A stretch of 32,000 nucleotides of DNA. Origin: Promethearchaeum syntrophicum (GTDB lineage: Archaea; Asgardarchaeota; Lokiarchaeia; Sigyniarchaeales; Promethearchaeaceae). The stretch's first letter is position 1; each line of letters starts with the position of its first letter. The DNA lies in the NCBI RefSeq assembly GCF_008000775.2, contig NZ_CP042905.2, forward strand, positions 1,860,001-1,892,000. The letters are read 5' to 3'. Shown here one piece after another: positions 4,069-23,227 of the stretch. A program made the translations under genes and the position numbers. The notes below the pieces were generated by a model, which was not told the DNA's origin, ran no database searches, and saw nothing but the letters and a program-made list of their open reading frames with translations.

Positions 4069-4185
4069 CATTTTTATTTTAAAAAAATTTTCAATAATTT
4101 AACCTATTCACCAAAAAAATCGAAACAAAAAAAATATATAAATTATTCTTGTCTATTTTCACTGAATAATCTCTTTTTCAAAATT

Positions 4186-4255
4186 TATGGCTTCACATCC
4201 TTGCAGGACTCATCTTTCTCGCTCAAAGTTGTGCAGATATCTAATTAAAGCCATA
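4186..4255. repeat. Distal copy (A) of a GC-rich structured repeat shared with 5108-5186
   Basis: 4187-4230 matches 5113-5156 at 41 of 44 positions, in direct orientation. A flanking 8-bp closing helix pairs 4186-4193 (tatggctt) with 4248-4255 (aagccata). Confidence 0.6.
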
Positions 4256-4378: not shown

Positions 4379-4618
4379 ATGACTCAAATTTCGATGGATA
4401 AAGATCTGGCAATGGATTTGATTGAATCTAAACTAAGAAACATTAAGAAACAAATCTTAGAGATATTAGGAAAATGGAATCAACCTTCTGCAGAAATTAT
4501 GATTCAATTATCTCGAGATGGGAAACTACCAGAATCTGAAATTGATGCTATTGGATTAACTAATCTTCAAAAAAAAATGTATGAATTAGAGAAATATCAA
4601 CGAAGTTTGGAGGATTAG
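4379..4618 (+). CDS. Small helical protein, a putative partner (antitoxin-like) of the downstream TumE/DUF6516-like gene
   Basis: 79-aa ORF ending 41 nt before the next ORF. The assignment rests on position only. Confidence 0.35.
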   Translation: MTQISMDKDLAMDLIESKLRNIKKQILEILGKWNQPSAEIMIQLSRDGKLPESEIDAIGLTNLQKKMYELEKYQRSLED

Positions 4619-4659: not shown

Positions 4660-5001
4660 TTGTATTCAAATCTTTCAGAATCAATCCTATCTTTTTCTTA
4701 TATTCCTGAGCAAAATCAATTAAGATTTGACCTTAGAAATGGTTCACGTTTATACATCGTATATAATGATTTTGAGGAATATGCTTATCAGTATAATTTC
4801 TCAGATGATCCATTAGATCGTGTTAGATTTGATGCAATGGACAAGAAGTGGGTTGTTCCAACCCCTCCCCATCATTTTCATCCTCGATTTAACAAAAATG
4901 GGTTCCTTAGTCCAATGAACGGAAATCCTTCACATGATATCCCAATTTTAATTAAAATGCTAAAATCTCATGAATTGGAGGACAAAAACTTACAATTCTA
5001 A
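4660..5001 (+). CDS. TumE/DUF6516-like toxin-antitoxin family protein (start codon uncertain; TTG at 4660)
   Basis: The pattern YAYQYNF...RVRFDAMDKKWVVPTPPHHFHP resembles, from memory, the Y-Y...R-DN-pHH...PHHKH signature of the TumE/DUF6516 family. Confidence 0.5.
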   Translation: MYSNLSESILSFSYIPEQNQLRFDLRNGSRLYIVYNDFEEYAYQYNFSDDPLDRVRFDAMDKKWVVPTPPHHFHPRFNKNGFLSPMNGNPSHDIPILIKMLKSHELEDKNLQF

Positions 5002-5059: not shown

Positions 5060-5067
5060 AAAAAAAA
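5060..5067. terminator. A8/T8 tract between convergent genes, a possible bidirectional oligo-T terminator
   Basis: The tract reads T8 on the minus strand, about 130 nt after the mvhD stop and downstream of the structured 3' UTR element. Archaeal termination commonly uses oligo-T runs. Confidence 0.35.
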
Positions 5068-5107
5068 TAAAATTTATATTTCTCAATTCCGATTAACTCT
5101 ATTTCCA

Positions 5108-5186
5108 AATATATGGGTTCTCATCCTTGCAGGACTCATCCTTCTCGCTCAAAGTTTGTAGCTCAAATTCATCTGTACCATATATT
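5108..5186 (-). promoter_or_regulatory. Structured 3' UTR element of the hdrA-mvhD operon, a candidate SECIS (proximal copy B of the repeat)
   Basis: The element starts 12 nt after the mvhD stop. A 9-bp closing helix pairs 5108-5116 (aatatatgg) with 5178-5186 (ccatatatt). On the minus strand an AUGA (5172-5169) lies on the 5' side and GAGA (5122-5119) on the 3' side. The core is GC-rich in an AT-rich intergenic region. Confidence 0.45.
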
Positions 5187-5197
5187 GTATTCTCATA

Positions 5198-5695
5198 TCA
5201 TTTTCCTTTTACGGATTTTTCCTTTGCTTTCGCTGCTTTCTTTGCTGCGGCTTTCGCTGCAGCATCTTGCTGATACAACCGAATTTTTGAAGGTCCAAGT
5301 TTCCGAATAGTCTGATCCATTTTCGTCGTTAACTGTCTGAACCGTTCACCCTCGGCAGCTGAAAAGAACATCATCTGAATGCGCTCGCGTTCTTCTTTTC
5401 CAACCATGGTTTCCAGAATATCTTGAATGTAGAAAACCAGGTTCCTGGCATATAAATTACCTTGAACGTAGTCGCACTCTCCGACATGTCAGCCACCGAT
5501 GATTACTCCGTCAGCACCTTTATTAAAAGCACGCATTATCATATCGGAAGAAACCCGCGCTGTGCACATAACTCGAACTGGACGAATGCTGGTAGGATAC
5601 TGCGCCCGGATTGTTCCGGCCATATCACATGCCCCGTAACCTCATTTCCAGCACAGAAAAGCGATGATTCGTGGTTCGAAATTTTCATCTGTCAT
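5198..5695 (-). CDS. mvhD: MvhD/VhuD-type hydrogenase delta-subunit-like iron-sulfur protein carrying two in-frame TGA (selenocysteine) codons
   Basis: ATG at 5695 is in frame with track ORF 5198..5407. My translation is MTDENFEPRIIAFLCWK[TGA]GYGACDMAG...RVMCTARV...GADGVIIGG[TGA]HVGECDYVQGN. The TGA codons at 5644-5642 and 5491-5489 fall where the family has Cys (CNWC and GCH). Confidence 0.85.
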
Positions 5696-5706: not shown

Positions 5707-7692
5707 TTATGATTCTGTTTCTTCAACAAATAGTGCGTCTTCCAATATGCCGTCTATTAAATCGAAGTATTGCTCATCACGATAATATCGTAATGTAATC
5801 GCTTCGCTCGGACAGACAGCAACGCATAGTCCACAACCCCTGCATAAAATATCATCAACAATTGCGCCTTTTTCTTGAGTAATTCTAATCGCGCCATATG
5901 GGCAACTTTTTTCACACATTCCGCATCTTGCACACTTATTCGGATCGGAAATAGCTCGGATGAGTTTTATCCGGTATTCGCCATTCGAAAGAAGCTTTAC
6001 AATCGAGGATGAAGCGCCTTTGGCTTGCATAATTGTTTCGGATATCGCTTTAGGGGCATGGCATGCGCCTGCTAACGAAATTCCTGGGACATCTGTATCA
6101 ACTGTGTTTAATCGCTGGTGGAACTCTTTAAGGAATCCGCTGGGATGTTTTGAAATATTAAGAGTTTTATTAAGTTTATCAAATGTGCGTGAGGGCATCA
6201 TAGCCGCCGATAAAACAACCATATCAAATGTATATTCTTTGATTGTTTTATCTGGACTTAGAGTGTCTTCAAGTACTACTTTTAGGCTCTTAGTTTTCGG
6301 ATCTTCTCTGATACGGCCTACTTTTGAACGAATATATTTTACACCTTCTCGACGTGAGGCGGTGTAATATTCTTCATAACCTTTTCCTGCTGCACGAATA
6401 TCAATATACGCAACCATTACTTGAAGCGATGGGTCGTGTGATTTTACTAGTTTAGAATTTTTTATACTAATCATACAACACACACCACTTGAGCAATATT
6501 CGTTTCTATTGATATCCCTTGACCCGACACATTGCACGAATAGAATGCTTTTTGGTGTTTTTGCATCAGATGGTCGGACGAGATGTCCAACAACAGGACC
6601 GTTAGGTGCAATCATCCGTTCTAAGGTTAATTGGGTTATGACATTTTCATATTGATCATATCCCAAATAGCCGTATTCAGGTTCGTATTCATCCCAACCT
6701 GTAGCTATGATAATACCTCCAACTTTGACTGAGAACTTCGTATCTTTTTGTTCATAATCAACCGCTTTAAGCTCGCAAACATTGGCACAATTTCCACAAA
6801 GAATACAATGGTCCATGTCAATTTGAGCAACCATCGGAACTGCTTGAGCGAATGAATAGTAGATAGCTCTGCGGGGTCCAAGTCCCATATCGAATTCACT
6901 TGGGACTATTGCAGGACACACGTCAAAACATGCTCCACATCCATTACAATCATTTTTTGTATATCGGGCTTTTTGTAAAATCTCCACTTCGAAGTTTCCA
7001 ACATAACCACTTATTTTTGTTACTTCGGAGAGGGTAAATAACTCGATATTTTCATTCCGTTGAGTTTCTAACATGACAGGACCTAAGATTCAGATACTAC
7101 AATCGTCTGTGGGGAATGTTCGGTCAAGCATTGACATTTTACCACCAATCGTAGGCTTTTGCTCTACTAAGTACACTTTGTGTCCTTGGTTTGCTAAGTC
7201 TAGGGCTGATTGTAAACCTCCTACTCCTCCACCGATAACTAGTACTGCATCTGTTACCGGGACGACTCTTTCGGGTACCATTTCGAGTTTAGCTGCTCGC
7301 GCAACACCTGCTCGAATTTGTTCTTTTGCCATATCTAAGGCTTTCGGTTGTTCTTTCTGATGAACAAAGCTTACATGTTCTCTGATGTTGACGAACTCCA
7401 GGTATGATGGATCCATTCCACAGTCCGTTAAAACTGCCTGAAAGACTGGTTCATGGGTTTTGGGAGTTCAAGCCGCGATAACTACACGGTTTAGATCATT
7501 ATCCTTAATATATTTTTTAAGGAAATCAGCACCTGATGTAGTTCAAAGAGAGATATTCTTGTCAGCTATTATTACATTTGGTAAAGTCTTGCTAAACCTT
7601 ACCAATTCGTCCATATCAAGAACGCCAGCTATATTAACACCGCATGAGCAAGGAAAAACCCCAATTCTAACTTCTTCGGGATTATCGCTCAT
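5707..7692 (-). CDS. hdrA: Heterodisulfide reductase subunit A (HdrA), 661 codons, with three in-frame TGA (selenocysteine) codons
   Basis: ATG at 7692 is in frame with track ORFs 7090..7416 and 5707..7074. The TGA codons lie at 7545-7543, 7470-7468 and 7092-7090. Motifs present: GVFPCSCG, the FAD-binding VLVIGGGVGGLQSAL, FPTDDCSI[TGA]ILGP, and four CxxCxxCxxxCP ferredoxin motifs. Confidence 0.9.
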
Positions 7693-20888: not shown

Positions 20889-22342
20889 AATTCTCTATGT
20901 AACTTAAGGAAACATGAGTATATAACAGTATGGATCTTCTATAATAATATAAACTATAGTTATCGCTTTAAATTTGCGATTGGTTTAGACAAAATATAGG
21001 TGTTTAATACTATACCACACTTAAAAACCACTAAAAGCCCTAAAAACACTGATTTTATTCATAAAATTGACTTAGATCCCTGTAATACTGATTTGAGGTG
21101 TATTTCATCGAGGATTTAACGGGTGAAAAAGTGGTTGAAATGAAGCATTTCCTCGCTTGAAACCACCTACAGACACTCCTAACACTCTACTTTGTTCAAA
21201 ACTTCCAAGCAAATTTTCTTATTCTATTCAGTCAGATAGATAGGGTTAGTGTATACTATTTTGGACAACGGTTCTAATAGTTTTTTAGGGTTATGAATCT
21301 ATTAAACATATTTATAGAATCTGCCAAAAATCAATTATCTCCAAAAATCTCGCTGATACCATTGCTATCCCTTTCTAGAGAGCCAACTGTAGAATTCCTT
21401 GTTCAAAAACTACGGAAGGACTGGGTATGGATTAGCAAGGTTTACGAAAGGCAGGTCTATCGCTGAGTAGATTGATTGAAAATACCTATATTCGATTAAA
21501 TTAGGTTGTAGGTTGGTTTAACACTGATTCTTTGTTTAAAACAGTTAATCATATAATAAAATTCATTCTAATGAATATTCCATGCAAATGCTATTTTGAA
21601 AACTCTCAACAGGGCTTGGAAACCCCTTAGACAAAAGAATGACACAAAAATACTCAAAGGGGGGGGTTGGGGTGTCCTACTGTTTGAGATTGAATGATTC
21701 CAGAGCAAATATTTACGGGATTTGAACGAACTTTCAGTATTAGAGAAATTGGCTATCGCTGAAAAGTGGTTCAAACGTGCTATATCGCTGAAAAGTTGTT
21801 CAAAGCATTCATTCAGATTGTTAATGGATTGAATTCAAAATTGAGAGAATTCTACATAGTTTGCAAAAATGGAAATATACCGATGATTGCTTAAGAAAAG
21901 GTCTATGATTCAAATAAGATTACTTGATTGATTCCCGTTAAAATGGATCGGATAGGAAAAGAAAACGTAAAAAAAACAGAGGGTGTGTGGGTTTTTGAGC
22001 CTTCCCGATCCCAAAAAATCAGATTTTTGTGTGAATTTAGTGTGAAATTAGATAACATTGTGAAAAAAGGAGGTTAAATTGACAAATTCGGGACTATTTC
22101 AAAGAAGAATTTGATAAGGAATGAAAACTTTACATGATCGAGGTAAAATCAACATTTATTCCATGTATTATTTTGTCTTTTTGGATGATATGTGAAAACA
22201 TATCTGATTTAAGCATCTTTACGATGCTCTTATTTTATCTGACAGCTTGTCAGATTGATGGAAAAAGTTGGTTTTACCTTAACTTTTGAGGATTTTTCCC
22301 AAAATGTTATAAAGAAAAGTAGAAAAAATAAGTTTGACAGGG

Positions 22343-22401
22343 ATTAGTGTTAACAGAAATAGAATTAGTGTTAACAGAAACTTAATTAGTGTTAACAGAA
22401 A
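22343..22401. repeat. Three direct iterons ATTAGTGTTAACAGAAA with an exact 21-bp period
   Basis: Copies lie at 22343-22359, 22364-22380 and 22385-22401. Each contains the palindromic octamer TGTTAACA. Confidence 0.85.
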
Positions 22402-22678
22402 TAAATGAATTCTACCTGCTATAATTATTTTTGAAAAATAACACTTGATTATTATTTTCTATTCCCTTTTCTGACCGCAATTTTCAACCCTTATGCAATG
22501 CGTTTATTCATGCTGAAGGCGGTCTAAAGCAGGTAAATTTTCTTGGCTTTTTGGTCTTTCCTCGCTTCCATGTGCAAGGCGGTGAGGTTGGCGGGGGATG
22601 GAGCTGGGGAGGGGATCTTTTTTTGGAAGTTTAACAGGATGGATTTGAAAAATCATAAATCAAATAGAAAAGTTGCAT

Positions 22679-23071
22679 GGTTACAAAACCAAATATATGA
22701 ATGTAACCTTTTTTGTAACCTTTTTTCTCGGTGAAAATAATCAGAATGTGAGTATCCTTAATATAATAATAAAAGGTTACAAGGTTACATTATATTATAT
22801 ATATACCCTCATGTGCATTTAGATACATTTTATTTTATTTTATCACGATCAAAAAAATATATATTTTCACCCTTCGTTACATGTGGGGTATATTTCTCAC
22901 ATTGTAACCTTTTTTGTAACCTCCCTTAAAATATCTACATCTCCATATTTTTGATTTTCATTTTTTGAGAAAAAACTGTTTTCTCAATTTTATTGTTATG
23001 AGGATAATTATATATATAGGTAACACCATTTTTTCAACATTTTGTAACCTTCAAAAAATTAGATTGTAACC
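22679..23071. repeat. GTAACC iteron field flanking AT-rich tracts, a candidate replication origin of the element
   Basis: TGTAACC occurs at ~22702, 22714, 22903, 22915, 23043 and 23065. The inverted form GGTTAC occurs at ~22679, 22775 and 22783. Near-pure AT stretches lie at ~22789-22866 and ~22940-23020. Confidence 0.5.
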
Positions 23072-23227
23072 TTTTTTTCACCCTTTCTAAAATCATCTAC
23101 AAGCAATTTATTTTAATCAGTTTTTTTAGGTTTTTTTGGAAAAAAGTTAGAAAAGTGACTGAAATTACTAAAATTACTAATTTATTTGATAAAATCTAAA
23201 ATATATTTGAAAAATAAAAAAAAAAAT

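Follow-up and report, generated by a model that had tools for sequence, protein, structure and literature searches.

How one mRNA can have UGA read as selenocysteine (Sec) several times over and yet end a protein on the same codon is the question raised by a two-gene locus of Promethearchaeum syntrophicum MK-D1, the first cultured Asgard archaeon. The locus lies in a stretch of 32,000 nt that was analysed as a whole and is termed here the window (G+C ~28%). A contig of the Logan collection (run DRR199588) has the identical sequence, and another gene of that run bears a UniRef name with taxid 2594042, Promethearchaeum syntrophicum. On the minus strand of the window, the hdrA-mvhD pair contains five internal TGA codons and one terminal TGA, that of mvhD, together with the features listed below.

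5707..7692, minus strand: hdrA coding sequence, 661 codons with three putative Sec codons (translation; Pfam Fer4 and FAD domains; match to 5odc_A)
7543..7545, minus strand: hdrA UGA codon 50, putative Sec, 2373 nt 5′ of the SECIS core
7468..7470, minus strand: hdrA UGA codon 75, putative Sec, 2298 nt 5′ of the SECIS core
7090..7092, minus strand: hdrA UGA codon 201, putative Sec, 1920 nt 5′ of the SECIS core
5198..5695, minus strand: mvhD/vhuD coding sequence, 165 sense codons plus stop (translation, Pfam, solved chains)
5642..5644, minus strand: mvhD UGA codon 18, putative Sec in a CxxU motif, 472 nt 5′ of the SECIS core
5489..5491, minus strand: mvhD UGA codon 69, putative Sec in a GGU-H motif, 319 nt 5′ of the SECIS core
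5198..5200, minus strand: UGA at the end of mvhD, taken as the stop codon, its start 28 nt 5′ of the start of the AUGA core
5060..5067, minus strand: T8 run 3′ of the SECIS-like element, likely transcript end (read from the sequence; putative terminator)

The hdrA gene ends on TAA (5709-5707) and a spacer of 11 nt separates it from the mvhD ATG (5695-5693). The two in-frame TGAs of mvhD stand in the contexts IIAFLCWK[U]GYGACDMAGTIR (codon 18) and GADGVIIGG[U]HVGECDYVQGNLYAR (codon 69). Beyond the terminal TGA the frame remains open for 32 codons (YENTIYGTDEFELQTLSEKDESCKDENPYIWK) as far as TAG at 5101-5099, a hypothetical extension that would begin [U]YENTIYGTDEFELQTLSEK, and from the same UGA there are 25 nt to the AUGA core of the 3′ element and 11 nt to its helix I. 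Oligo-T tracts are established archaeal terminators, and the T8 run that follows the element may act as one. A first-pass annotation of this DNA had placed the mvhD start at 5695, 11 nt past the hdrA stop, the in-frame TGAs at 5644-5642 and 5491-5489, the stop at TGA 5200-5198 and the end of the 32-codon open frame at TAG 5101-5099. All of these coordinates were reproduced by translation or read again from the sequence, and the distance from the mvhD stop to the 3′ element, given there as 12 nt, is corrected to 11 nt as measured to the outer helix. Elsewhere in the window, ~2.3 kb (~20900-23200) is without an ORF of at least 80 codons; three tandem 21-nt units ATTAGTGTTAACAGAAATA occur at 22343-22403 and several copies of TTGTAACCTTTTTTGTAACC at 22691-23086.

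Internal UGA codons of hdrA and mvhD

With Cys set at its TGAs, the mvhD product matches the Pfam FlpD/MvhD family (PF02662) with an E-value of 1.1e-41 over residues 10-134, spanning both TGAs, and it does so with a score of 142.1 bits against a cut-off of 22.3 and with all of the profile covered (positions 1-123 of 123). Six solved MvhD/VhuD chains also match (E = 1e-37 to 1e-30), and the Cys residues of their CNWC and GGCH/GCH motifs lie opposite the two TGAs. Judged from these alignments, a family match across both TGAs is far beyond chance. The product belongs with the VhuD-type selenoproteins, with UGA at the second Cys of CxxC and at the Cys of GGC-H where homologues that lack Sec have Cys, and VhuD has been tabulated as a CxxU protein with two Sec (PMC13188914). 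The MvhD/VhuD identity and the positions of the TGAs at the CNWC and GCH Cys residues, both proposed in the first-pass annotation, therefore hold up against the full-length Pfam match, the solved chains and the homologue alignment, which puts both TGAs on conserved Cys columns.

The same is true of hdrA, so that all five internal TGAs of the pair fall on Cys columns. HdrA matches the solved HdrA chain 5odc_A with an E-value of 7.6e-84, and its codon 50 lies opposite a Cys of 5odc_A, codon 75 opposite the Cys of ‘VVAAC’ in the solved HdrA and codon 201 opposite ‘DCSIC’ of 5odc_A, the column in which HdrA canonically has Sec (Sec197 in Methanococcus; PMC13518236). The TGAs at codons 50 and 75 are kept in two close relatives (L001 and L002), and nearly all loci that reach far enough have TGA at the distance from the hdrA 3′ end that is equivalent to codon 201. 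The two additional codons (50 and 75; 7468-7545) are placed unlike the N-terminal Sec of most other Loki HdrA.

Conservation was assessed in 83 related loci from genome and metagenome collections, with further ones obtained by exact protein look-up. The first Sec column of mvhD has TGA in 84 of 84 related loci, while the second has TGA in 82 of 84, the exceptions, L003 and L043, having Cys (TGT). When the window was compared with six close relatives in three segments of mvhD (before, between and after the two TGAs), pS was mostly 0.4-0.8 and pN 0.01-0.10 in each of them. Such strong purifying selection in all three segments argues that the frame is translated through the TGAs as one unit.

Two other explanations of the internal TGAs have to be weighed against this. 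The locus could be a decaying pseudogene, or three small ORFs, in which the TGAs are ordinary stops, and in its favor public gene calls and the nr entry hold only the 69-residue C-terminal ORF of mvhD (5198-5407, 100% identical, F420-non-reducing hydrogenase subunit D of Candidatus Prometheoarchaeum syntrophicum). Gene calls in assembly collections give HdrA as C-terminal fragments of 453-455 residues, and an exact look-up of the 455-residue HdrA fragment returned no record. Purifying selection, however, acts on both sides of each TGA, TGA stands exactly at the Cys columns in 84 loci with synonymous sites near saturation, and the pieces of 17 and 50 residues would not be able to fold as MvhD on their own, to judge from the contiguous Pfam and PDB alignments; the chance that the locus is decayed or fragmented is close to nil. 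Alternatively, UGA could stand for a standard amino acid, e.g., Trp or Gly, throughout the genome, as would be suggested by the absence of TGA among the stops of the 17 window ORFs of at least 150 codons (14 TAA and 3 TAG). These long ORFs, however, also lack any in-frame TGA, which argues that the code is not reassigned; in-frame TGA is confined to hdrA and mvhD, and there to Cys columns, TGA and TAA replace one another at the mvhD stop, and complete Sec machinery has been reported for the lineage (PMC4989117; PMC11227280). Genome-wide reassignment is no easier to credit than decay, and both can be set aside as exceedingly improbable. We infer instead, from the sequence comparisons above, that the five UGAs of hdrA and mvhD are read as Sec.

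The terminal UGA of mvhD

Among the clearly coding genes of the window, mvhD is the only one with a TGA stop. The Promethearchaeum clade, compared here as nine distinct close-relative sequences including that of the window, has TGA as the mvhD stop in six and TAA in three. In L090, TAA occupies the exact codon that is the terminal TGA in the window, while in L004/L086 and in L085 the stop is TAA at other positions. A 1-nt indel directly past the stop shifts the frame of the extension in five of the eight other distinct clade sequences, in L001 and L002 that frame meets another UGA after nine codons, and the sequence past the stop is conserved in the way of paired RNA, by paired changes, and not as codons. 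These features indicate that the 32-codon extension is not under selection as protein. On this comparative evidence the terminal TGA of mvhD is a true stop and the protein is predicted to end ...KSVKGK, although some leakiness may occur. The first-pass annotation had counted five Sec UGAs and one stop UGA on the same mRNA and had doubted the extension. With stop identity and spacing now compared in orthologous loci, the count stands, five of the UGAs being on Cys columns and the sixth being interchangeable with TAA, and the doubt was justified.

The terminal UGA could nevertheless be decoded as a sixth Sec, either fully or at a useful frequency, to give a 32-residue extension ending at TAG 5101-5099. 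The frame is indeed open over this length, the UGA at 28 nt is much farther from the core than the overlapping UGA stops of canonical loci, and an in-frame UGA at 33 nt in L075, with UAA six codons later, indicates that read-through could be harmless. Against this stand the TAA of L090 at this very codon, the frame-shifting indel just downstream in most relatives, the further UGA nine codons on in L001 and L002, the conservation of RNA pairs in place of codons, and a published protein that ends KSVKGK (PMC11227280). Decoding of the sixth UGA is hence considered quite unlikely, and termination there is the preferred reading.

The stop codons of a wider set of loci are also informative. The mvhD stops (n = 80) comprise 47 TAA, 21 TAG and 12 TGA, and while TGA is thus used in 12 of 80 mvhD genes it is used in none of 71 hdrA genes (Fisher p = 0.0004). 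An absence of TGA stops from hdrA is expected if any UGA far from the SECIS is recoded. This stop-codon bias, obtained from independent data, reproduces the reasoning of Mariotti et al., by which a UGA distant from the SECIS would be recoded, and so is selected against, whereas a SECIS-adjacent UGA terminates (Mariotti et al., 2016; PMC4989117). In relatives with a canonical lokiSECIS, a UGA stop mostly coincides with the UGA inside AUGA (7 of 9), and compared with these the 28-nt spacing in the window is unusual.

Two further observations concern the ends of mvhD genes in relatives. L075 (3424-3460) has the in-frame UGA 33 nt 5′ of its AUGA core, with the UAA of its relatives six codons on; this UGA is either a stop or a third Sec, and of natural cases it comes nearest to the 28-nt spacing of the window. 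The Lys-rich tail of MvhD (the last 40 codons) changes frame through indels in A-runs (L080, L053 and L016 versus L077, L057 and L074), with one frame stopping at the UGA of AUGA and the other at a UAA 12 nt 5′ of it, and these alternative frames suggest that the SECIS core acts as a back-stop terminator.

The RNA element downstream of mvhD

The 3′ element and its parts, with a partial second copy, are as follows.

5108..5186, minus strand: SECIS-like 3′ UTR element (conservation, pair counts, RNAalifold)
5186-5178 with 5116-5108, minus strand: helix I, 9 bp, AU-rich, followed by a 5-nt loop and then AUGA
5172-5169, minus strand: AUGA core, invariant in 9 of 9 distinct clade sequences
5168-5160 with 5149-5141, minus strand: helix II (A.G, three pairs, tandem G.A/A.G, three pairs)
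5159-5150, minus strand: apical loop, 10 nt, ACAAACUUUG, with an A-rich start and ending in G
5140-5139, minus strand: GA, invariant in 9 of 9 distinct clade sequences
5135-5123, minus strand: third hairpin GUCCU-GCA-AGGAU, 3′ of GA and 5′ of the second strand of helix I
4166..4230, minus strand: second, incomplete copy of the element, retaining the third hairpin and the 3′ strands of helices I and II

Helix II has six standard pairs among its nine positions, the rest being A.G and the tandem G.A/A.G. It contains a compensatory change in L004 (U-A to A-U), both non-canonical positions of the tandem have become standard pairs in L085 (G.A to U-A and A.G to C-G), and L091 has G.A changed to A-U. 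RNAalifold applied to the clade predicted the same architecture. Over the element, identity to the window is 87-95% in six of the eight other clade sequences and 80% in L085, while synonymous differences in the gene are 0.4-0.8. Its folding energy is no better than that of shuffled sequences (z = 0.19 and −1.0), and hence the case for the structure rests on conservation and covariation in a few, closely related sequences. A covariance model built from the Promethearchaeum clade sequences, termed R2, scores the element at 117 bits and over the 32 kb of the window finds one full element and one truncated copy, with none near hdrA, which fits one shared signal. A scan of the window with Rfam gave no family, SECIS included, at gathering score, and a tRNA scan of the window gave no match.

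Several other assignments of the core were considered and rejected. An AUGA at 5196-5193 with a stem of two mismatches, from the first automated scan, is AUAA in L001, and its stem fails in L002. An AUGA at 5139-5136 with the third hairpin is altered by a deletion in L004 (AUGG), and the GA 3′ of it is GU in L001, in L089 and in the second copy. The tandem G.A of helix II was discarded as the kink-turn core, as it is Watson-Crick in L085 and L091 while the outer AUGA and GA are invariant. The third-hairpin assignment made in the clade by a heuristic parser was also wrong, and the pair counts, RNAalifold and an alignment of 16 sequences were used in its place.

The partial copy at 4166-4230 is without AUGA and the 5′ half of the element, and scores 41 bits with R2, the 5′ pairs being broken. 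It is part of a 65-nt duplication of 88% identity (repeat D5; 4166-4230 and 5092-5156) whose copies flank a two-gene cassette on the opposite strand, comprising the plus-strand ORFs 4379-4618 and 4660-5001. The 113-residue product of the cassette has a weak likeness to the toxin TumE (22.6 bits, against a cut-off of 23.4), and eight relatives lack the cassette within the sequence compared. The flank of the second copy resembles the flank past the single SECIS of L001. The sequence of the duplication and its cassette suggests that an insertion or a recombination event took place at the SECIS.

The lokiSECIS was defined by AUGA 5′ of a 9-bp stem, an 11-nt loop that starts with A and ends with G, and GA or AA on the 3′ side (Mariotti et al., 2016; PMC4989117). 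Most relatives have such an element 4-18 nt past the stop, with AUGA, a 9-bp stem, an 11-nt RAAAAnnnUAG loop and GA. A covariance model of 58 canonical VhuD lokiSECIS, termed R1, in whose alignment 91.8% of cells are paired and 9 of 9 pairs covary, gave no match at E ≤ 10 in 5100-5200 of the window and none in L001, L002 or L004. In the reverse direction, R2 aligns in register to canonical lokiSECIS loci (E = 0.008-0.4). The element in the window has the flanks of a lokiSECIS, with AUGA directly 5′ of the stem and GA directly 3′ of it. It differs, however, in its loop (10 nt, ACAAACUUUG, in place of 11-nt RAAAAnnnUAG), in the internal tandem G.A/A.G of helix II, in its AU-rich helix I of 9 bp where canonical elements have CCGA/UCGG, and in the position of the UGA stop, which is 28 nt 5′ of the core where that of canonical loci is inside AUGA. 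It is possibly a divergent lokiSECIS, and this is possibly a new point. When applied by hand, the Type I eSECIS-like model (NNGAN, an upper stem of 7-15 bp that tolerates up to two mismatches, a loop of 8-20 nt, and NGANN or NAANN; Huang et al., 2024; PMC11227280) also describes it, with AUGAA, a stem of UUUGAGCU with AGCGAGAA (8 positions, 2 mismatches), the 10-nt loop and GGAUG. In the parts consulted of the supplementary files of that study, the SECIS sequence of the window was not found.

Features beyond the published definition emerged when 62 canonical elements (loci L006-L083) were inspected with ~15 nt on the 5′ and ~30 nt on the 3′ side of the lokiSECIS. In these, as in the window, an outer helix is present along with a third hairpin, the latter right past ‘GAC’ and before the 3′ strand of the outer helix. 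The outer helix is mostly CCGA/UCGG, with compensated versions (GCGAA/UUCGC, AAUGUG/CACAUU, AAUCGAU/AUCGAUU), and the third hairpin appears as ACCUU/AGGGU, ACCAU/AUGGU or CCCA/UGGG, and as AUGG/CCAU in L008. In the alignment of 16 sequences, which was fitted to the model, 21 of 23 pairs have changes on both sides and 88.5% of cells are paired, as compared to 33-49% when partners are slid, and none of 500 shuffles reaches the observed value. A MAFFT alignment of the extended canonical elements (A4) has helix I out of register and was excluded from the counting.

This arrangement resembles a k-junction, defined as a k-turn whose non-bulged strand accommodates a third helix (Wang et al., 2014; PMC4005666). 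Here the third hairpin (5135-5123) is placed after GA and ahead of the 3′ strand of helix I, covariation is seen in all three helices (n = 16), and, at the level of a predicted secondary structure, there would be a canonical helix 5′ of the loop and a non-canonical helix opened by G.A/A.G. The spacers that separate the third hairpin from its neighbors here (3-6 nt on each side) are longer than those of a k-junction. The main texts of PMC4989117 and PMC11227280 make no mention of a third hairpin or junction, and a three-helix, k-junction-like layout of the Lokiarchaeia SECIS, as modelled here, is possibly a new detail. A more far-reaching version, that the shared HdrA-VhuD SECIS is k-junction-like and that the Promethearchaeum form has diverged so as to be silenced by unwinding of helix I and not by overlap with AUGA, is put forward tentatively and may well prove wrong.

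A peroxiredoxin-like (PrxL) selenoprotein gene of the same organism, L093 (1304-1385), provides a different arrangement. Its stop UAA is followed by UGA, forming AUGA, whereas in its orthologue L094 the UGA of AUGA is the stop. The L093 3′ UTR has three helices and an apical loop GUAAACCUAUGG, with AUGA outside the outer helix and the core placed differently, and neither R1 nor R2 matched it.

A probable shared signal, its relation to known systems and its significance

It is highly probable that hdrA and mvhD are carried on one mRNA in which a single 3′ SECIS serves five UGAs and the sixth UGA terminates. Starting from what is observed, namely gene identity, Sec columns, conservation, stop behavior and a conserved, covarying RNA structure, we infer co-transcription, recoding and a steric cause of termination. 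The two genes would form a selenoprotein operon with, most likely, one mRNA ending past the 3′ element. The 3′ UTR of this mRNA would present a single SECIS-type RNA, in which a hairpin with an A-rich loop rises from a kink-turn-like AUGA...GA core, and this RNA would direct the archaeal Sec-specific elongation factor and Sec-tRNA to the five UGAs located 319-2373 nt upstream. A ribosome with the sixth UGA in its A site would, however, cover or unwind helix I such that the signal could not act, and the release factor would win, giving a protein that ends ...KSVKGK. On this account, termination at the sixth UGA would follow from the ribosome itself covering or melting the signal.

An alternative is that recoding depends on local signals, i.e., a bacterial-type hairpin for each UGA, or on a separate SECIS for hdrA, with the 3′ element serving as a terminator or stability element. 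The 60 nt from hdrA codon 50 (7486-7545) do fold into a hairpin better than 198 of 200 shuffled sequences (z = −2.75), but the contexts of the other four UGAs have no excess structure (z = −0.2 to +2.2), and hairpins of the bacterial type after each UGA were rejected with just one of the five better than shuffles. Moreover, a 3′ UTR SECIS is the documented archaeal mode (PMC4989117), the AUGA...GA, the A-rich loop ending in G and the site just past mvhD are all of the lokiSECIS plan, R2 is in register with canonical lokiSECIS loci, and it finds no second element near hdrA. Local or separate signals are very unlikely, and the single shared SECIS is retained.

Much of this is already on record. 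Loki HdrA-VhuD pairs with a multi-Sec HdrA, a two-Sec VhuD, a single shared SECIS and the UGA-stop logic were described by Mariotti et al. (2016; PMC4989117), and a survey that extended this to selenoproteins of over 400 Asgard genomes (Huang et al., 2024; PMC11227280) includes this very MvhD as Lokiarchaeia_GCA_008000775_U (file 75), which is letter-identical, has X at residues 18 and 69 and ends KSVKGK, together with the matching HdrA (file 77) with three X, codon 50 included. With the phenomenon in the one publication and the exact protein in the other, the finding is already known, and for this genome a two-Sec MvhD gene that ends on UGA has been published before. The locus has the same gene order, very short spacer and single SECIS just past vhuD as other Lokiarchaeota HdrA-VhuD tandems, in which hdrA always stops on UAA or UAG and vhuD may stop on a SECIS-adjacent UGA.

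With Methanococcales and Methanopyrus it shares the VhuD CxxU and GU-H motifs, the HdrA Sec197 column and hdrA-vhuD synteny (PMC4989117; PMC13188914; PMC13518236). In those archaea, however, HdrA has one Sec where there are three here, and each gene has its own SECIS, of the GAA_A-bulge type. No GAA_A bulge with an all-G/C upper stem of 3 bp was found in 5108-5186 by inspection, where the sole GAA beside a short stem, GAA-GGA...UCC-U, comes with a pair other than G/C and with U for the 3′ A.

The eukaryotic SECIS is similar in its AUGA/GA core, its A-rich apical loop and its 3′ UTR site, and it likewise serves distant UGAs while a nearby UGA terminates. The mRNA of selenoprotein P has many UGAs. 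In contrast to the eukaryotic element, helix II here is shorter and one element would serve two cistrons. In archaea, no homologue of SBP2 is known and no SECIS-binding factor has been identified (PMC4989117).

Since the phenomenon and the protein were published in 2016 and 2024, the finding as such adds little. The full selenoprotein genes are unannotated, however, and metabolic reconstructions will therefore under-report the electron-bifurcating module to which they belong. Should the three-helix layout prove real and necessary, the search target would change both for Asgard SECIS elements and for the factor that binds them. Moreover, with a stop at 28 nt and putative Sec codons from 319 nt, the locus provides, in cultivable MK-D1 with its eukaryote-like SECIS, a natural test of the minimal distance for recoding.
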